From: an archaeon
GTDB lineage: Archaea > Iainarchaeota > Iainarchaeia > Iainarchaeales > CSSED10-239
Direction: 5' to 3'
NCBI GenBank assembly: GCA_037147375.1
Contig: JBAWVI010000007.1
Span: 1-15,913 of the forward strand
DNA length: 15,913 bases
Shown here: positions 1 to 15,184 of the stretch, one piece after another
How positions within the stretch are numbered: position 1 is the stretch's first letter
Layout of the letters: each line of letters opens with the position of its first letter
The notes under the pieces: model-generated
The model's input: only the letters and a program-made list of their open reading frames with translations
Told to the model about the DNA's origin: nothing
The model's database searches: none
Program-made: the position numbers and the translations under genes

Positions 1-154
1 TAAAATGGATTTTGTGTTACTGGATCTGCATTTAAAGATATAAATAAGAATGATAAAAAGATTATACTTAATACTAAAATAATATATCTTACTTTCATAC
101 TTATATAGATATATAAAGGGTTTAAAAATATAACTATAAATTATTAACTAGAAA

Positions 155-189
155 AAGTAAATAAAAAACCTTTGAGATAAACTCAAAGG
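155..189 (-). terminator. Hairpin plus oligo-T tract downstream of the 950-aa surface protein gene
   Basis: Perfect 8-bp inverted repeat CCTTTGAG (169-176) / CTCAAAGG (182-189) with a 5-nt loop. It begins 9 nt past the stop codon (199-201) on the - strand and is followed on that strand by TTTTTTATTT (A-run 163-168 on +). Oligo-T tracts are the usual archaeal termination signal. Confidence 0.55.
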
Positions 190-198
190 TAACTTTAT

Positions 199-3051
199 TT
201 ATGGGAACGTATGAGTATACAAATCGCTCTGAACCCAATTAGAAGTTGCATATACTGTTAAATAATTAGGATCCCCATAATCTTCTGTTTCCATTATAGC
301 TCTTGCCTTGAAGTTTGTTGGTTGATTAATCCATATTGGTCCTGTGCTATTATAATTCCAACCATCACAAACTAAGTGTCCATTGAACAATCCAACTGGT
401 TCGCTACCATCCATTGTGTAACAAATTGTTGAACCAGGTGTTGGTGAAGTAAATGTTACATATGAACTTAAATAACTTGCACTTGGAGCTGCAGGTTTAG
501 GTATTCCATTTGCACAAATTATTGAAGTATATCTTTGACCTACTCCATGCTGTCCCCAATTAGTAAACTGATTACCATATGCTACAGGTCCATTACAATT
601 AAAATTACCTTTAACATATTGTAAATTTGGCTCGAAAGGTGCAGCTACAAATGTAAGACCATGATTTTGACAAAATAATTCTCCAACTGATGGCAACTTA
701 GCTAATTGATCATCTGGATTATAAGTTTGAGAAAGACCTAACCAAACCTGATTATAAATTACTGTATGTAAAGAATTAGATAAATTATTTGTACATGTAG
801 TAAATCTAATGTCCATTGGAGAATTAGGAGTTTCATCACCACATCCTGTTGGTACTCCACCTGTATATGTTAATTCATAAACAGGTACACTTAAAATATT
901 ACAACGGTCCATAATATAATTTTCAGTCATTATACTGCTTGCAGTATATCCTGACTTAAAACCAACTGCTTTCACTTGTGTATCACCAGTTAAGGTTATT
1001 GCACCACTATAGATTGGTGCACCAGGTGCTGGAACTTGCATAGGAGTTGATCCATCAGTTGTATAACGTATTTCTGCACTATTTGTAATTGAACTTATAC
1101 TTACATCAAGTGGAAGTACATAAGTTCCTCCTGTTGGACTAGCAGTAGGTAGTGCACATTTAAGTGTATAAATCTTAGTCATGATTCCACTTGGATTCAT
1201 TGGTGATAAACATCCAATTGCCTTTAAAGTTTTTGTTCCTGTAATAGGAATTGCGCTTACATATTGAGTTGATGAACAATTAGGATCTGTTCCATCAAGT
1301 GTATAGTGGACTATTGCACTTGGTGTACTACAACTTAAAGTTACTGATTGGTCATTATAGTATATACCACTATTTAGACTTGCAGTTGGTGTTGCAACAG
1401 TACCTACATTATTAATTGTCCATGTACTATCTTTATATGCTGAATTTGCAGCATTACTATCATTAGTTGCTGTAAATCTTAATCTATAAGTTCCAATTGT
1501 ATTACATCTAAATGGAGCATAACTTAATGTTGATGGAGCTAAATTAGTTCCAAGAGTAATACTTGGTGCATAAACACTATTATATGCACAATTAGAGGTT
1601 GAAAAACCAGTGGAGTCATCTTTAACATCCACTTTTAATGTATATCTTACTGTTGACGCATTTTCTAATGTATTTACATCAACATTGAAATCAGTATTTA
1701 AAGTTGTTGATCCAGTTGTTGGAGTTACATTTATTTTCATTGGAGTTGGTGGTGTAAGCACAAATGAAGCTGCTACTGTTATATTTCCTTGAACATTTGT
1801 ATCTGTTCTTGGATTAGCTGTTGAACCATCACTCCACTGATTAAAATCATAACCTGTGTTTCCAACTGCAGTTACTGGAGTTCCAGAACCACCCTTAGCA
1901 ACTGTTTGTGGAGAAACACCACTTATTGTACCATTTGGACCTGCTGTGTATGTTAAAGTATAATTTACACCCACGTTTTTAACAAAGGTTATACGTATCC
2001 AATGATTACGATCAACTGCATAAAATGTATATGAATTTCCTAAGTGACCAAATGATTGTACGGTTCCATCTACATTTACTTCACCTATAAGATAACCTGG
2101 ATTTGCAGACCATGTAAATTTTTGATCATTTCCAGCAGGAACTAATACTTGACCACTAGGAATTATTGTACCGCCCACTGTACCGTCACTAGGAAATGTT
2201 CTAACAAATGCAAAAATAGTATAATCTGCTGGTGGAGTTGGATCTTCAATTCTACAAGTTACATCAATTGTATGATTTGCTTGTACATTAATAAAATCAT
2301 AAGTTAATGTAGGAGATATTACTTCACTCCCATCTACCATTAATGTATCAATCTCATAACCTGTATCAGGGATAATTTTATATGATTGATCATTACCTTC
2401 ATTAACATCTGTTGCACCTAAAGGAAATATTGTACAATTAGGACCAGCTGTTGATTTGATTGTATATGTATTTGTTGGTGAACCAACTAACTTGAATGTT
2501 GCATGAATTGTATGATTTGATTGTATATCAGTAAATGGATACGGGTTAACTACTGTCGTAGATGTACCATCAATATAAAGTTTATTAATTTCGTAAGTTA
2601 CGTTAGGTGTGATTACATATGATTGATTATCACCTTGATTAACAGTTGTAACACCAGGTGGTGTTACTGTACCATTAGGATTTTGTGTTGCAGTTATAGT
2701 AAAAGTTCCTAAACAATTTGATATGTTTAAAGTACAATTCGAATTACATGAAAGGGTACCTCCACCATTATAACCTTCAGTGGCACAATCATAAGGCCCA
2801 AATAATAATCCATCACATTTTTCTCCAGGATCTAAAGCACTATTACCACATGGAGTTCCATAGATTGGTTCATTAAGATCACCAATCATTCCATTATAAT
2901 CTAAATTTGCAATCTCAGTTGCTTCCGCTGTTTTTTTATTAATGTTAGATAAATAAAAAGTTCCTAAAATTATTCCTCCTATAACTAGAACTCCTAGTAT
3001 TGCTAGAATTTCTATTGATGTTTGTCCTTTACTTTTATTTTTATTAAACAA
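199..3051 (-). CDS. Large secreted/surface protein with class III (archaeal type IV pilin-like) signal peptide; modular putative adhesin
   Basis: 950-codon ORF. The start is TTG (3049-3051), preceded by the same 11-nt GGTGATTAAAT leader as the paralog at 3259-3645. The N-terminus MFNKNKSKG|QTSIEILAILGVLVIGGIILG has a short basic region, a G|Q cleavage context, the QxSxE motif and a hydrophobic helix (Class_IIIsignal/DUF361-like). A six-Cys module spans aa 68-113 (CGNSALDPGEKCDG...). Four B-repeat-like modules of about 70-80 aa span aa 117-431. An Ig-like Thr/Ser-rich segment spans aa 437-555. CHB_HEX_C-like modules (IxYTxDG[ST]xP) lie at aa 560-632, 640-714 and 858-950. An unassigned six-Cys domain spans aa 715-855. 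Confidence 0.9.
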   Translation of the reverse strand: MFNKNKSKGQTSIEILAILGVLVIGGIILGTFYLSNINKKTAEATEIANLDYNGMIGDLNEPIYGTPCGNSALDPGEKCDGLLFGPYDCATEGYNGGGTLSCNSNCTLNISNCLGTFTITATQNPNGTVTPPGVTTVNQGDNQSYVITPNVTYEINKLYIDGTSTTVVNPYPFTDIQSNHTIHATFKLVGSPTNTYTIKSTAGPNCTIFPLGATDVNEGNDQSYKIIPDTGYEIDTLMVDGSEVISPTLTYDFINVQANHTIDVTCRIEDPTPPADYTIFAFVRTFPSDGTVGGTIIPSGQVLVPAGNDQKFTWSANPGYLIGEVNVDGTVQSFGHLGNSYTFYAVDRNHWIRITFVKNVGVNYTLTYTAGPNGTISGVSPQTVAKGGSGTPVTAVGNTGYDFNQWSDGSTANPRTDTNVQGNITVAASFVLTPPTPMKINVTPTTGSTTLNTDFNVDVNTLENASTVRYTLKVDVKDDSTGFSTSNCAYNSVYAPSITLGTNLAPSTLSYAPFRCNTIGTYRLRFTATNDSNAANSAYKDSTWTINNVGTVATPTASLNSGIYYNDQSVTLSCSTPSAIVHYTLDGTDPNCSSTQYVSAIPITGTKTLKAIGCLSPMNPSGIMTKIYTLKCALPTASPTGGTYVLPLDVSISSITNSAEIRYTTDGSTPMQVPAPGAPIYSGAITLTGDTQVKAVGFKSGYTASSIMTENYIMDRCNILSVPVYELTYTGGVPTGCGDETPNSPMDIRFTTCTNNLSNSLHTVIYNQVWLGLSQTYNPDDQLAKLPSVGELFCQNHGLTFVAAPFEPNLQYVKGNFNCNGPVAYGNQFTNWGQHGVGQRYTSIICANGIPKPAAPSASYLSSYVTFTSPTPGSTICYTMDGSEPVGLFNGHLVCDGWNYNSTGPIWINQPTNFKARAIMETEDYGDPNYLTVYATSNWVQSDLYTHTFP
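1759..2703 (-). repeat. Tandem array of four protein-domain repeats (InlB B-repeat / Flg_new-like) inside the 950-aa CDS
   Basis: aa 117-187, 196-267 and 277-357 share the pattern [FY]T[IL]...G...V..G..Q.[YF].I.P..GY.I..[LV].VDG....Y.F..[IV]..NHTI...F. aa 364-431 is the related GYDFNQWSDG...NITV..SF type. Residual DNA identity remains at the NHTI-coding segments (AATTGTATGATTTG at about 2268-2281 and about 2507-2520). Confidence 0.7.
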
Positions 3052-3062
3052 ATTTAATCACC
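3052..3062 (-). promoter_or_regulatory. Shine-Dalgarno leader GGTGATTAAAT directly before the TTG start of the 950-aa gene
   Basis: The reverse complement of 3052-3062 is GGTGATTAAAT, identical to the leader of the paralog at 3646-3656. GGTGAT is complementary to the AUCACC near the conserved 3' end of 16S rRNA. Confidence 0.6.
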
Positions 3063-3258
3063 TTTCATTTATCCATAAATAATTATTAATAATAGTAATT
3101 ATAGTAAAATACATTAAGTTTATAAATATTACTTTTTTAAACAAATAATTGGAAGAAATGAATTTTAATTGCTTTAAAAAAAGGAGAATATGTAAAATAT
3201 ATATAAATAAGTAATAAATAACAAAAACAGTTTAAAAAATATTTAAATTAAATAAATT

Positions 3259-3645
3259 TTACTTAACTGTGCACATAGTTTTATCAAAGGTGCATTCTTG
3301 TGCAGTCCCAACTGCATAACAAGTTAATGATCCTGTTAAACTTGGATCTTCTGACTCACAAGTCTTTCCATCTACATTTATAGGAGGCCCTGGTTCACAT
3401 TCTTCAGCCCCATCTATAAAACCATCTCCACAAATTACAGGAGTTCCTGGAATATAAAGTTCATCTGAATTTAAATCATCATTCATAGCAGTTGCTGTAT
3501 TTAAAACTCTTGCAGCTTCTCCTGTTTTCTTATTTTGATTAGATAAATAGAAGCTACCAATAATAACAGCTCCAACAATAAGAACTCCAAGTATAACTAT
3601 AACTTCAATTGTAGCTTGTGCTTTTTGTTTATTTTTTAAAAACAT
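3259..3645 (-). CDS. Small class III signal peptide (type IV pilin-like) protein with C-terminal six-Cys module
   Basis: 128-aa ORF with an ATG start preceded by GGTGATTAAAT. The N-terminus MFLKNKQKA|QATIEVIVILGVLIVGAVIIGSFYLSNQNKKTGEA is co-linear with the N-terminus of the 950-aa protein (MFNKNKSKG|QTSIEILAILGVLVIGGIILGTFYLSNINKKTAEA). Cys residues at 72, 83, 96, 109, 118 and 125 include CGDGFIDGAEECE, which resembles the CGDGxxxxxEECD cysteine-rich repeat family. Confidence 0.85.
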   Translation of the reverse strand: MFLKNKQKAQATIEVIVILGVLIVGAVIIGSFYLSNQNKKTGEAARVLNTATAMNDDLNSDELYIPGTPVICGDGFIDGAEECEPGPPINVDGKTCESEDPSLTGSLTCYAVGTAQECTFDKTMCTVK

Positions 3646-3656
3646 ATTTAATCACC
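3646..3656 (-). promoter_or_regulatory. Shine-Dalgarno leader GGTGATTAAAT directly before the ATG of the 128-aa pilin-like gene
   Basis: The reverse complement of 3646-3656 is GGTGATTAAAT, the same 11-mer and the same spacing as at 3052-3062. Confidence 0.6.
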
Positions 3657-8460: not shown

Positions 8461-9671
8461 ATCGTTCTTATTTTTATTTTTTTAATAATATTATCACAAT
8501 TTATATTAGATTCTTTGCGAGAATTTCCTTTTGTAATAACAAATGCAACCATATCAGACAAATTTTTAAAATCACCTAAATATGTATTTTGTTTAGGCTC
8601 GGATCCTTTCCACCACCTAAATTCAACAAACCCAGGCATTTTAGAAATATTTGATTTATATTTAATATCTTTATAAAATCCATTTTTAAAAAAAATACAT
8701 TTAAATGTAACCCCTATACTTTTACTAATAAACACGTCTTTTTTTCTAGGCACCTTTCCTAACGCAACATAAATTGCAGCCACAATACTATTTGTACCAT
8801 ATGCCATATTATTTAACTTCCAAAAATTAGGGGAACCTAACCTTCCTGCCATTTCAATTATCTTTGGACCATCACAAGTATATATTAAATCTCCTTTAAC
8901 AACTCCGTTTTTTATTTTTAAAATATTAATTGCGCTAACAAATAGTTTGCATAAATTTTTATACTTTTCCTGCGATAAATTCGTTGGTAATACATCTCCC
9001 TGTTCAACAAAAAAAGGATTATATTTTTTATATAAATATATTCTATCCGAAAACCCAGTTATATAAATTTGATTATTTGAAACAATGGCTTCTATACTAT
9101 GTTCACTTCCTTTAAGAAATTCTTGTATAATAATATTATTCGAAACGGTTCTTGCATGAGAATACGATTCTAAAAGTTCTCCTTCATTTCTAACTTTTCT
9201 CACTCCTCTTGCACCAGCACAATCTACTGGTTTTATAACAAAAGGGTATTCAAAATGTTTTGTTTTACTTTTAAAGTCTTCAAAAGAATCCACTTTCATT
9301 GTTCTAGGAACCGGAATTTGCTTAGAACTTAACAATGTATACATTAAATATTTATTAGTAAATAATTCAGCTTGTTTAATAGATAAGCCAGGGAACCTAT
9401 ACATTTTAGAAATATGCGCAGATAGTTTAACCCCCTTTTCAAACCCAAAAGGGATTACTCCTGCAAACTCATCTTTTTTCCTATGCTTTTTTAAATAAAA
9501 CTTTATCTTATCAATTTCATCAAGTGATATAAAAAGCTGCTCATCATTTGCATCTATCCTTAAATCACGTTCCGATATAATAAATAAATCGAATCCATTT
9601 AATTTAATAAATTTTAACCCCTCTTCTATTCCTCCTCCAACCCCAGTTATTATAATTTTTTTTCGTTTCAT
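8457..9671 (-). CDS. ATP-grasp ligase (ATP-grasp_4 / L-amino-acid-ligase-like by eye)
   Basis: 404-aa ORF. N-terminal KKIIITGVGGG pre-ATP-grasp domain. Then NKYLMYTLLSSKQIPVPRT...YPFVIKPVDCAGARGVRKVRNEGEL...IIIQEFLKGSEHSIEAIV...VKGDLIYTCDGPKIIEMAGRLGS, which fits the ATP-grasp pattern (K-loop, E-x-[FY]-[IL]-x-G, ...[IV]E.N.R.gG). The ATG overlaps the stop of the upstream gene (ATGA at 9668-9671). Confidence 0.8.
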   Translation of the reverse strand: MKRKKIIITGVGGGIEEGLKFIKLNGFDLFIISERDLRIDANDEQLFISLDEIDKIKFYLKKHRKKDEFAGVIPFGFEKGVKLSAHISKMYRFPGLSIKQAELFTNKYLMYTLLSSKQIPVPRTMKVDSFEDFKSKTKHFEYPFVIKPVDCAGARGVRKVRNEGELLESYSHARTVSNNIIIQEFLKGSEHSIEAIVSNNQIYITGFSDRIYLYKKYNPFFVEQGDVLPTNLSQEKYKNLCKLFVSAINILKIKNGVVKGDLIYTCDGPKIIEMAGRLGSPNFWKLNNMAYGTNSIVAAIYVALGKVPRKKDVFISKSIGVTFKCIFFKNGFYKDIKYKSNISKMPGFVEFRWWKGSEPKQNTYLGDFKNLSDMVAFVITKGNSRKESNINCDNIIKKIKIRTI

Positions 9672-10675
9672 TTTTTCACAGATAATATCATTTTTTCTAG
9701 AAAATCAGCCAAGGTAATATTATTCAAATCATAAAATTTTTCAAATTGAAGACCAGTAAGTGATGTGCCTGGATTAAATTCTAATAAATATAATTTCCCA
9801 TCTTTCGATTCTCTAAAATCAAAACGGCCATAACTGTTTAAATTTAGTTTTTCTATTAATAATTTTATAATCTTCAAAATATTATTTGTAATTTCAATAT
9901 TTACTTTTTCCATTCGTTTTTCTCTTTTATCTTTTAGTATGTTTGATTGATATTTATAATCTTTCCAATTATTAAATATTACCTCACGTAACGCAATTGA
10001 ATGAAATCGGTTATCAAAAAAAGCATACGGAGTAGAAATATCGTTTCCATCAATAAATTCTTCAATCATCATAGGGGAATCGTATTTTTTAGAATGATTA
10101 TACGCAAATCTTAATGCATCATTTCTATTTTTGAAAATATTTTTATTCCCTTTTATTAATCCAATACTATTATCTAATTTAGCTGGCTTTACAATATAAG
10201 GACCTGAAAAAGGGATTTTAATTTTATAATTTATAGTTTTATACGATATTGTTATCCAATTCGGAGTTAATATACCCCATTGCCTAATAATACTTTTAAA
10301 ATGATCTTTGTTTTGAGCGAGAGCCTGAATATATGTTTCTTCCATTACATATGGAATTCCTAATAGTCTCATAGTAGATGGGAAATGCGCACCATCATAA
10401 ATATCATAACCATCTGTTATATTCCATCCCACTAAGTTATTCGTTTTTTGATATAATAATTTATTTAAATCATCTTTAGAACAAATAGGTATTAACTCAA
10501 AACCCTTACTTTCTAACGCGGCAATGATACAATTTATTTCTATATCTCTTTGAAGAAATCTAGATTTATCCTTAAATATTAAATCATTCTCTTTATTTTG
10601 TTTTTTTAACCAATTATTACGCCTTTCATAATATAATAATATCGTCATTTTATTAATCATCATTTGTACCCCCAT
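9668..10675 (-). CDS. D-alanine--D-alanine ligase-family ATP-grasp enzyme
   Basis: 335-aa ORF. Motifs: KDHFKSIIRQWGILTPNW, GPYIVKPAKLDNSIGL, MMIEEFIDGNDIS, and GRFDFRESKDGKLYLLEFNPGTSLT (compare Ddl gRvDf...dG.iyllEvNt.PG.T). The start is uncertain. The longest ORF start (10675) overlaps the upstream gene by 23 nt. An ATG at 10663 or 10660, preceded by GGGGGT, is at least as likely. Confidence 0.8.
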   Translation of the reverse strand: MGVQMMINKMTILLYYERRNNWLKKQNKENDLIFKDKSRFLQRDIEINCIIAALESKGFELIPICSKDDLNKLLYQKTNNLVGWNITDGYDIYDGAHFPSTMRLLGIPYVMEETYIQALAQNKDHFKSIIRQWGILTPNWITISYKTINYKIKIPFSGPYIVKPAKLDNSIGLIKGNKNIFKNRNDALRFAYNHSKKYDSPMMIEEFIDGNDISTPYAFFDNRFHSIALREVIFNNWKDYKYQSNILKDKREKRMEKVNIEITNNILKIIKLLIEKLNLNSYGRFDFRESKDGKLYLLEFNPGTSLTGLQFEKFYDLNNITLADFLEKMILSVKK

Positions 10676-14871: not shown

Positions 14872-14932
14872 AAATTATTGTCCTCTTCTCTTAAAAGTAG
14901 TTACTGGAATAGTTTATAAACATTTATTCTCC

Positions 14933-14943
14933 TAAATATATAA
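14933..14943 (+). promoter_or_regulatory. TATA-box-like element for the tRNA-Trp gene
   Basis: TAAATATATAA is centred about 25 nt upstream of tRNA position 1 (14963). This is the expected spacing for an archaeal TATA box. Confidence 0.5.
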
Positions 14944-14962
14944 GACCGAATAAACAATCTAT

Positions 14963-15163
14963 GGGGATATAGGGTAGTCCGGTCTAGCCTAACAGGCTCC
15001 AGACTGATACTTTCTTGAAAAAGAAAGGTTCTGGAACGCAAGATGGTTTTTATAAAAGAAAACCAGATGATTGAAAAATACAAGTTTGTCTGAAAAAGAA
15101 ATTTTTTCGGGATAACAGAAAGGGAGAAACTTGTTGACCCGGGTTCAAATCCCGGTGTCCCCA
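14963..15163 (+). tRNA. tRNA-Trp (anticodon CCA) with a 126-nt intron at the canonical 37/38 position
   Basis: Manual cloverleaf.
- Acceptor stem: GGGGATA (14963-14969) pairs with TGTCCCC (15156-15162); discriminator A73 (15163).
- U8, A14, G18G19 and A21 are present.
- D stem: GGGT/GCCT.
- Anticodon stem: ACAGG (14992-14996) pairs with CTTGT (15130-15134).
- Loop: C32 T33 C34 C35 A36 G37, then the intron, then A38.
- T arm: CCGGG-TTCAAAT-CCCGG (15139-15155).
- CCA is not encoded.
- G1:C72 plus A73 fits archaeal/eukaryal Trp identity. Confidence 0.9.
15003..15128 (+). ncRNA. tRNA-Trp intron with bulge-helix-bulge splice motif and three internal hairpins; box C/D-like motifs are imperfect
   Basis: BHB motif: the central 4-bp helix pairs CTCC (14997-15000) with GGAG (15123-15126). 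It is flanked by 3-nt bulges AGA (15001-15003) and AAA (15127-15129). Cleavage after the 2nd bulge nucleotide gives exactly G37|intron|A38. Internal hairpins: CTTTCTT-GAAA-AAGAAAG (15010-15027), GGTTTT-8 nt-AAAACC (15045-15064), and GAAAAA-loop-TTTTTC (15092-15108). Confidence refers to the existence of the intron, not to a guide-RNA function. Confidence 0.75.
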
Positions 15164-15184
15164 TATAAATTTCTTATTTTTATT

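Follow-up and report, generated by a model that had tools for sequence, protein, structure and literature searches.

Two paralogous genes on the minus strand

The stretch of DNA analysed here, called the window throughout, comprises 15,913 nucleotides (nt) of contig JBAWVI010000007.1 (assembly GCA_037147375.1) from an archaeon assigned to the Iainarchaeota. Two adjacent genes on its minus strand encode proteins of 950 and 128 amino acids (aa), referred to as the large and the small protein. An earlier note on this DNA had described them as paralogs whose signal peptides are of class III (type IV pilin-like), and both open reading frames (ORFs) are present on the minus strand where it had placed them. 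Loci used for comparison are numbered L001 onwards and their proteins P0001 onwards.

199-3051, minus strand: large gene, ORF of 950 aa, start codon TTG at 3051-3049
3259-3645, minus strand: small paralog, ORF of 128 aa, start codon ATG at 3645-3643
3057-3062 (large gene) and 3651-3656 (small gene), minus strand: Shine-Dalgarno (SD) word GGTGAT, read from the sequence

The identical GGTGAT ends 5 nt before the start codon in both genes and is also found 5' of the orthologs in L007 and L008. The TTG start of the large gene was accepted because of this SD word and the alignment with the paralog and the orthologs. BLASTP aligns the two proteins with 52 identities in 129 positions (40%, E 6e-22), and the paralogy is co-linear from residue 1 to the last (sixth) cysteine, about 125 residues. 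The twelve cysteine positions given before agree exactly with our recount (68/79/89/102/106/113 in the large and 72/83/96/109/118/125 in the small protein). Each protein possesses one hydrophobic stretch, located N-terminally at residues ~11-34 (mean Kyte-Doolittle value 2.5-2.9).

The large gene encodes, in this order, a predicted class III signal, a helix, a first six-Cys module, four B-repeats, a beta-sandwich segment, two CHB_HEX_C modules, a second six-Cys domain and a third CHB_HEX_C module. The layout of the small gene is restricted to the leader MFLKNKQKA, a helix beginning with Q-A-T-I-E, a linker and one six-Cys module. Orthologs of the small protein are P0001 and P0002, and full-length orthologs of the large protein (P0003-P0006 and P0010) share 42-74% overall identity with it.

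The pilin-type N-terminal signal

3025-3051, minus strand: leader MFNKNKSKG of the large protein, residues 1-9, with the motif KGQTSI at residue 8 and a predicted cut between Gly9 and Gln10
2920-3024, minus strand: predicted mature N-terminus of the large protein, Q-T-S-I-E and hydrophobic alpha-1 helix, residues 10-44
2851-2919, minus strand: polar, mildly acidic linker of the large protein, residues 45-67, read from the sequence

Both leaders carry a lysine at -2 and a glycine or alanine at -1 within the first ~10 residues, and both proteins continue with Gln +1, Ser/Thr +3 and Glu +5 (word QTSIE in the large protein; leader MFLKNKQK-A, motif KAQATI and word QATIE in the small one). Windows with a mean Kyte-Doolittle value >1.6 are confined to residues 8-37 in both proteins, with a maximum of 2.48 at residues 15-33 of the large protein, and the hydrophobic run is ~22 residues long. 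The AlphaFold2 model of the large protein has a helix at residues 12-44, at a low predicted local distance difference test (pLDDT) score. Substrates of the euryarchaeal prepilin peptidase EppA have a Gln at +1, which is required by EppA, and a Glu at +5 (PMC4371748); the processing sites of the Methanococcus Epd pilins are KGQV, KGQI, KGQL and RAQI (PMC4371748).

A profile termed A2, built on residues 1-60 of the two paralogs and of three orthologs, was searched with HMMER over 1.84 billion representative proteins at E <= 0.001. It retrieved 172 protein clusters, all listed matches being N-terminal in their proteins. An indexed word search had found only two relatives of the small protein and one for the N-terminal profile; it was the exhaustive HMMER scan that revealed the family. 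The motif [K..][G/A]-Q-x-[S/A/T]-x-E occurs in 141 of the 147 members inspected, the Gln having a median position of 9, and in an alignment of 95 relatives every sequence has Gln10, with at least 90% conservation of Lys8 and Glu14. A search with PF04021, proposed earlier as a check of the signal, had a divided outcome: both window proteins remain sub-threshold, whereas 47 of the 95 shorter family members scanned match at E <= 0.01 (best 2.7e-7). Since the family matches PF04021, and thus links the window proteins to it by transitive homology, and since the motif itself is present, the two N-termini are well supported as class III signals of the Epd/EppA kind, with cleavage by a prepilin peptidase predicted. 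In this respect motif, helix and family profile agree with the earlier proposal.

That the N-termini might instead be uncleaved signal-anchors, or Sec signals cut by signal peptidase I, for instance after A-E-A (residues 42-44), is in our view very improbable. The failure of PF04021 on the two proteins themselves would fit such a view, as would A-x-A-like words after the helix of the large protein and the lack of a peptidase gene in the window. However, the conserved word [K][G/A]Q-x-S-x-E precedes the hydrophobic stretch in those 141 members while no conserved site follows it, a stretch of ~22 residues is long for a Sec signal, half of the scanned relatives do match PF04021, and the signal of the neighbouring gene, which is genuinely of Sec type, bears little resemblance to these N-termini.

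TIGR04205 (archaeosortase D/PIP-CTERM-associated) was considered and rejected as a family for the two proteins, the match spanning signal and helix only and lying far below the cut-off. A C-terminal sorting segment was found in neither protein, nor was a second hydrophobic stretch. In many family members an acidic/aromatic word, T-D-D-F-x-N-D-L or V-D-D-F-V-D-D-L, follows the helix at residues ~45-60; its counterpart in the large protein is D-Y-N-G-M-I-G-D-L-N. Its role may be that of a conserved linker or of an element for recognition.

Size range and passengers of the family

The earlier note had regarded 950 aa as atypical of archaeal pilins. Within the family this size is ordinary: the 147 members have a median length of 388 aa and a maximum of 2123 aa, with 58 of them reaching 500 aa or more and 22 reaching 800 aa or more. 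Passengers on the same N-terminus span 43-2123 aa and comprise many unrelated domain types, among them CHB_HEX_C and the further adhesin-type modules PKD, Big_7, DUF285, GLUG and Fib_succ_major. Class III proteins of Iainarchaeota include one of 1200 aa with ten B-repeats and Fib_succ_major as well as two of 594 and 932 aa with B-repeats and DUF285. Tandem sets of two or three class III genes are located in L013 (22-3624), L016 (9193-11704) and L017 (9950-15189), which derive from Diapherotrites/Iainarchaeum and related archaea, and include the genes of these three proteins, with 2-10 B-repeats. A predicted pilin-type N-terminus with a large passenger is, on these sequences, common in Iainarchaeota-like genomes. 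A Lon_C-like Sec-type protein is encoded near the class III genes in L016 and L017.

This variety of passengers bears on the question of what the N-terminus is used for. It might serve export and anchoring only: the signal would be cut, and the helix would then act as a membrane anchor or enter a short, non-fibre 'bindosome-like' assembly, so that the lineage would use this N-terminus as a general means of displaying surface proteins and the large protein would be a cell-surface adhesin that does not sit on a pilus. We regard this, the main rival of our preferred explanation, as unlikely, yet as deserving serious weight. It would account for one N-terminus carrying unrelated domains over the whole size range, with 58 of 147 proteins at or above 500 aa, and for the position of the pilin-like genes, which stand in tandem with genes of Sec-secreted proteases and in the fetched loci never beside assembly genes. 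Archaeal sugar-binding class III proteins provide a precedent (PMC4371748; bioRxiv 10.64898/2026.04.22.720090).

Conservation and selection

Across six orthologs the large protein shows no change at residues 4-34 and very little over residues 2-48. A simple Nei-Gojobori count of the ratio of nonsynonymous to synonymous change (dN/dS) between the window and L005 yields 0.034 for codons 2-48 of the large gene (dS 0.70), 0.26 for its first Cys module and 0.51 for the remaining passenger, as opposed to 0.38 for the helix and 0.48 for the remainder of the small gene; these values come from an AT-rich genome (~25-30% GC) with dS near 0.7-1.2 and are to be read with that caution. In the N-terminal part of the large gene 30-43% of the codons for identical residues differ synonymously, so that the invariance stems from protein-level selection rather than from recent gene conversion. 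The N-terminus of the small paralog is 47-64% identical between relatives, that of the large proteins of the same relatives 89-98%, and the constraint on the former is about ten times weaker.

In bacterial pilins the residue Glu+5 is involved in subunit-subunit packing. The helix of the large protein is constrained far beyond what a lipid anchor would need; packing of helices against each other, or recognition by a machine, would agree with such an extreme constraint. A dN/dS of 0.034 with 48 near-invariant residues, and a buried Glu+5 retained in at least 90% of the family, therefore speak against a mere export and anchoring device; moreover, the bindosome itself is thought to require type IV filament (TFF) machinery. 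The helix of the small paralog is constrained no more than a variable surface domain.

The first six-Cys module and the role of the small paralog

2713-2850, minus strand: six-Cys module, residues 68-113 of the large protein, opening with C-G-N-x5-G-E-x-C-D, from the paralog alignment
3105-3126, minus strand: TATA-box-like word TTTATAAACTTAATGTATTTTA 5' of the large gene, the sole match in the window with 0.02 expected by chance

The corresponding module of the small protein comprises residues 72-125. The earlier note had proposed that the small paralog forms or primes a fibre of its own, that the large protein is its tip adhesin and that the shared six-Cys module is the interface between them. 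Arguments for this model are the adjacency of the genes, their common N-terminus and Cys module, the same SD word, the ordinary pilin size of the small protein and the conservation of the pair in L005, where it is kept together with the neighbouring GNAT gene. We nevertheless consider it improbable. The interface does not hold as a property of this pair, since the module is a repeat unit, with two copies in P0010 and about six in the L008 protein, which leaves no one-to-one relation. The small-paralog helix is weakly constrained (0.38 versus 0.034; 47-64% versus 89-98% identity).

Comparison of loci points in the same direction. L007, a metagenome contig which carries the 971-aa ortholog P0010, contains an ortholog of the small gene at 9257-9847 with SD word, TTG start and promoter word. 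In it, a TAG occupies the very codon of the +1 Gln (K-A-*-I-S-I-E), and 27 codons on there is a TGA; beyond the stops the gene continues into a longer, different Cys-rich tail, and the large gene beside it is intact. L012, a GTDB contig record of the closest genome-resolved relative, equals L007 across the 700 nt compared, including both stops, with the same coordinates. This stop-bearing gene may be a pseudogene, an off-switch or a case of read-through. Beside the more distant ortholog P0027 (1578 aa, in L010) a small paralog is absent.

A further argument against a dedicated two-gene fibre is that the large gene is preceded by a conserved promoter word of its own and the small gene followed by T-rich sequence. 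The conserved TATA-box-like word TTTATAAACTTAATGT(ATTTTA) lies ~55-75 nt upstream of the start codon of the large gene; in L001-L006 its 16-mer precedes the large gene, in L007 and L012 both genes (9178-9193 and 9929-9944). Probably it is a dedicated promoter of the large gene. From its extent the small gene has the appearance of a partial tandem duplicate, specific to a lineage, of the 5' end of the large gene, and judging by the comparison of loci it is dispensable in at least one relative. This contradicts a role as fibre-forming or priming subunit, which we take to be unlikely.

The affiliation of the module itself was followed with several families. The copy in the small protein scores 19.8 bits (E 5e-4) against TIGR02232, whose cut-off is 20.8, E 0.036 with DUF4215, and E 0.14 with disintegrin among solved structures; the copy in the large protein has no family match. 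The domains of TIGR02232 and DUF4215 and the N-terminal part of disintegrin share with the module here the head C-G-[ND]-G-x(3-6)-[GA]-E-E-C-[DE], but all scores lie below the cut-offs. Membership of TIGR02232 or DUF4215 was rejected as sub-threshold, the copies in the large protein and in relatives giving no match or E 0.032, and only a resemblance is retained.

A relative of the large gene at L008 175-2634 (equal to L009 150-2609) is one frame of 819 codons broken by a lone TGA, which follows residue 97 and stands where the window protein has a Gly. L008 and L009 come from two samples, and the first 526 nt from the gene start are identical, TGA included. The L008 protein shares the invariant N-terminus and the beta-sandwich segment with the window protein, contains about six Cys modules and one CHB_HEX_C module, and differs in its C-terminal region.

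Passenger domains of the large protein

1753-2712, minus strand: four InlB-type B-repeats, residues 114-433, from PF18998 and hhalign
1396-1752, minus strand: putative beta-sandwich ('Ig-like', immunoglobulin-like) segment, residues 434-552, from predicted strands, pLDDT 40-69
904-1395, minus strand: CHB_HEX_C_1/Fn3_assoc modules 1 and 2, residues 553-716, 67 and 57.8 bits at a cut-off of 22
487-903, minus strand: six-Cys domain of ~140 aa with F-C-x-x-H-G, residues 717-855, from an ortholog hidden Markov model (HMM)
202-486, minus strand: CHB_HEX_C_1/Fn3_assoc module 3, residues 856-950, 34-37 bits at a cut-off of 22

PF18998 recognizes the whole protein with 47.4 bits, above the gathering score, and module 4 of the B-repeats (residues 362-433) alone with 45.8 bits; taken singly, module 2 has a weak match (E 0.012) and modules 1 and 3 have no Pfam match. 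All four were accepted because hhalign, run on ortholog alignments, ties modules 1-3 to module 4 (B1-B2 99.7%, B1-B3 98%, B2-B3 97.9%, B2-B4 92%). In the AlphaFold2 model the region is beta-rich with a pLDDT of 65-80. The C-terminal modules belong to CHB_HEX_C_1 (PF13290) and Fn3_assoc (PF13287); hhalign relates modules 1 and 2 at 99.7% and module 3 to both at 95-97%.

Segment 434-552 is kept in the orthologs and in the L008 protein, and its sole family match is a sub-threshold one to LIFR_D2 (E 0.007). An Ig-like fold is plausible from the predicted strands. Of the domain list given in the earlier note, four B-repeats, three CHB_HEX_C modules and a Cys-rich domain were recovered, while its Ig-like segment is, at E 0.007, plausible only.

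An HMM of the domain at 717-855 finds nine copies among six orthologs, P0003, P0004, P0005 and P0010 (among them proteins of 1155-1166 aa) having a second C-terminal copy. It is marked by six conserved cysteines and the word F-C-x-x-H-G and ends with C-x-x-P; no match was found in Pfam, among PDB sequences or among PDB folds. An AlphaFold2 model of the domain alone, based on the nine copies, reaches pLDDT 60 and a predicted template modelling (TM) score (pTM) of 0.61, and the best Foldseek match to PDB has E 0.84. Likeness to C-type lectins was examined and dropped, as it amounts to few chains with E 2-7 and TM ~0.2, which is no evidence. The domain is a candidate new binding domain and possibly a binding head.

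AlphaFold2 on the whole protein, with a six-sequence alignment, gives an overall pLDDT of 55, with 25-49 at residues 1-114 and ~27 in the six-Cys domain. Foldseek with this whole model returned just generic Ig-like strings, that is multi-Ig surface and adhesion proteins.

Archaeal origin

A five-sequence N-terminal alignment was scanned over one genome per GTDB species. It found six loci, all archaeal: one Candidatus Diapherotrites archaeon, two Candidatus Iainarchaeum, two records labelled 'uncultured archaeon', one of which is L012, and one labelled 'archaeon'; Iainarchaeota are placed in the DPANN group, kingdom Nanobdellati. Since all these loci are archaeal and the window contains an intron-bearing tRNA-Trp (see below), the DNA is of archaeal origin, from a tiny-genome, DPANN-type archaeon within or akin to Iainarchaeota/Diapherotrites. 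Epd-like 'system 1' has been placed in DPANN archaea (bioRxiv 10.64898/2026.04.22.720090), and type IV pili genes have been reported in reference Diapherotrites genomes (PMC8561730). Within DPANN, Diapherotrites count among the groups with a richer metabolism and may be free-living (PMC8561730). The suggestion of a host-attachment device in a possibly episymbiotic archaeon stands as far as the DPANN-type archaeon is concerned; attachment is uncertain, given possibly free-living Diapherotrites and purF in the window.

Comparison with known systems

The closest likeness is with the Epd pilins and other EppA substrates of Methanococcus maripaludis (PF04021, formerly DUF361). Shared features are the basic leader ending in K/R-G/A, Gln +1, Ser/Thr +3, Glu +5 and the hydrophobic helix, with KGQT and KAQA here compared with KGQV, KGQI and RAQI there. 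Epd genes may also lie apart from the assembly locus, as is proposed here. In contrast, the Epd passenger has <100-200 aa versus ~900 aa here, and our protein has a DPANN host and a sub-cut-off HMM score; neither an epd-like locus nor an EppA gene is present in the window.

Bacterial modular type IV pilins (PilB and PilC of Streptococcus sanguinis, CofB/TcpB) have in common with the large protein a pilin-type carrier with grafted effector modules. More than 1,200 such proteins in 264 architectures, including multi-repeat ones, have been surveyed, and a role in adhesion at the pilus tip was proposed (PMC8179133). One feature of modular type IV pilins in the sense of Raynaud et al. (2021), non-pilus domains after a pilin-type N-terminus, is seen in the large protein with PF18998 and PF13290/PF13287. 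However, the bacterial proteins carry the G|F-T-L-I-E N-methylation motif (IPR012902) and not the archaeal Gln+1 type, and they possess a full globular pilin module, whereas here only helix, linker and a 46-residue Cys knob are found (model pLDDT 25-49).

A large extracellular protein on a class III N-terminus is also known from the 'bindosome' of Sulfolobus and from large class III signal peptide (SPIII)/adhesin-like proteins of archaeal TFF loci, which are displayed with the aid of TFF machinery. Bindosome passengers are solute-binding and their PibD-type signals lack the +1 Gln, in contrast to repeats and beta-sandwiches here, among which no binding-protein domain occurs. Large archaeal class III proteins comprise the bindosome binding proteins and the 'relatively large pilins' of Haloferax, and the epd locus includes SPIII proteins with adhesin-like or galactose-binding domains (PMC4371748; bioRxiv 10.64898/2026.04.22.720090). 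The passenger modules, finally, are shared above threshold with surface proteins containing InlB B-repeats (PF18998/PF09479) and CHB_HEX_C_1 (PF13290), of which hundreds are bacterial; these bacterial proteins have Sec signals, type IX secretion system (T9SS) sorting or S-layer homology domains, unlike the pilin-type N-terminus here.

The type of locus is already known, an Epd-type modular pilin-like adhesin, here in DPANN, and it is no new kind of machine. New in detail are the six-Cys domain at 717-855, the module exchange with a Sec-secreted M6-like peptidase (described below) and the in-frame stops in relatives.

A proposed modular pilin-like adhesin

Our tentatively preferred explanation, to which we give somewhat less than an even chance, is that the large protein is a modular pilin-like adhesin, incorporated as a low-abundance subunit into a filament by machinery encoded elsewhere, and that the small gene is a partial duplicate. 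The K-rich leader of nine residues would hold the N-terminus on the cytoplasmic side of the membrane. Cleavage by a prepilin peptidase, likewise encoded elsewhere, after Gly9 in the large and Ala9 in the small protein would expose Gln+1. The conserved alpha-1 helix with Glu+5 would then be taken up by the type IV filament machinery, also encoded elsewhere, the large protein being a subunit of low abundance and probably of terminal position, and another pilin of the genome the main fibre subunit. The passenger of ~900 residues could project as a stalk-and-head adhesin, probably for glycans or surfaces, composed of disulfide knob, four B-repeats, beta-sandwich segment, CHB_HEX_C modules (three) and six-Cys domain. 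The small gene, a putative partial tandem duplicate with SD word, leader, helix, linker and one Cys module, would encode a fast-evolving accessory or variable surface protein rather than a fibre subunit.

Several points weigh against this explanation, in addition to the caution about dN/dS given above. The many large and diverse passengers may mean that the N-terminus is a general export and anchor device rather than part of a filament subunit. A canonical globular pilin head is missing, the N-terminal part consisting of the helix and a small Cys knob only, and the AlphaFold2 model of residues 1-114 is of low confidence. PF04021 gives E 0.45 on the window proteins and E 0.11 when only the first 60 residues of the small protein are used, with 11-13 bits versus a cut-off of 23.7 bits, and TIGR04205 gives 15.9 and 21.1 bits versus 65. 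A sequence search of solved structures with the N-terminal profiles A2 and A4 had no pilin match, a bacterial geopilin N-terminus appearing only at E 5. No assembly ATPase, platform protein or prepilin peptidase is encoded in the window, which the annotation of its genes confirms in accordance with the earlier note. A six-frame scan of the window and 17 loci (~200 kb), a crude test confined to those loci, detected no T2SSE-type Walker-A word within 10 kb of the related pilin-like genes. Ligand and location at the tip are what we purely infer.

A wider interpretation, about which we are doubtful, is that in Iainarchaeota-like DPANN the Epd/EppA leader and the alpha-1 helix serve as a general display system for a large and rapidly evolving repertoire of surface proteins, with modules shuffled between pilin-type and Sec-type proteins and members perhaps switched off or on by in-frame stops, namely the TAG at the +1 Gln codon and TGA codons in otherwise intact frames; the pair in the window would then be one cassette of a variable 'pilin-anchored surfaceome'.

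DPANN archaea are mostly uncultured, and their contact with surfaces, partners and hosts is little understood; the locus provides a concrete and testable candidate. The family survey extends to archaea the idea of the 'modular pilin', which has so far been surveyed in bacteria, and it flags the 717-855 six-Cys domain as a possible binding head.

The neighbouring gene and other features of the window

162-190, minus strand: terminator-like hairpin with T6 run after the large gene, 9 bp stem at 168-190
1-98, minus strand: start of the neighbouring gene, which leaves the window and encodes a Sec-signal-peptide protein, from the sequence

Homologs of this neighbour lie downstream of the large gene in L005 (4325-4699) and L007 (13005-13313) and upstream of it in L010 (7709-9907). 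The full-length protein in L010 (732 aa) matches Peptidase_M6 (immune inhibitor A, PF05547) with E 9e-5. The C-terminal ~280 residues of the pilin-type protein of L008 are 55% identical to the C-terminal part of this M6-like peptidase, and modules have therefore been exchanged between Sec-type and pilin-type surface genes.

Other genes of the window encode a GNAT acetyltransferase, seryl-tRNA synthetase, a NUDIX hydrolase, a beta-CASP/MBL (metallo-beta-lactamase) nuclease and the 3' part of purF. Between 4657 and 11693 a cluster comprises an NAD-dependent sugar epimerase/dehydratase, two oxidoreductases of the GFO/IDH/MocA type, a deacylase of the M20 (ArgE/DapE-type) group and two ATP-grasp ligases. 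Synthesis or modification of a sugar- or amino-acid-decorated surface glycan is a possible function of this cluster.

A tRNA-Trp(CCA) gene is located at 14962-15164 on the plus strand and has an intron of 126 nt in the anticodon loop. It was found by ARAGORN with introns allowed and was missed by default ARAGORN and by an Rfam gathering search. An 87-aa ORF at 14901-15164 on the minus strand is considered spurious because it overlaps the tRNA-Trp gene. Introns of this kind in the anticodon loop of tRNAs are typical of archaea. The intron contains the box C/D-like words GATGATTGA ... GTCTGA, recalling the guide RNA of archaeal pre-tRNA-Trp introns.

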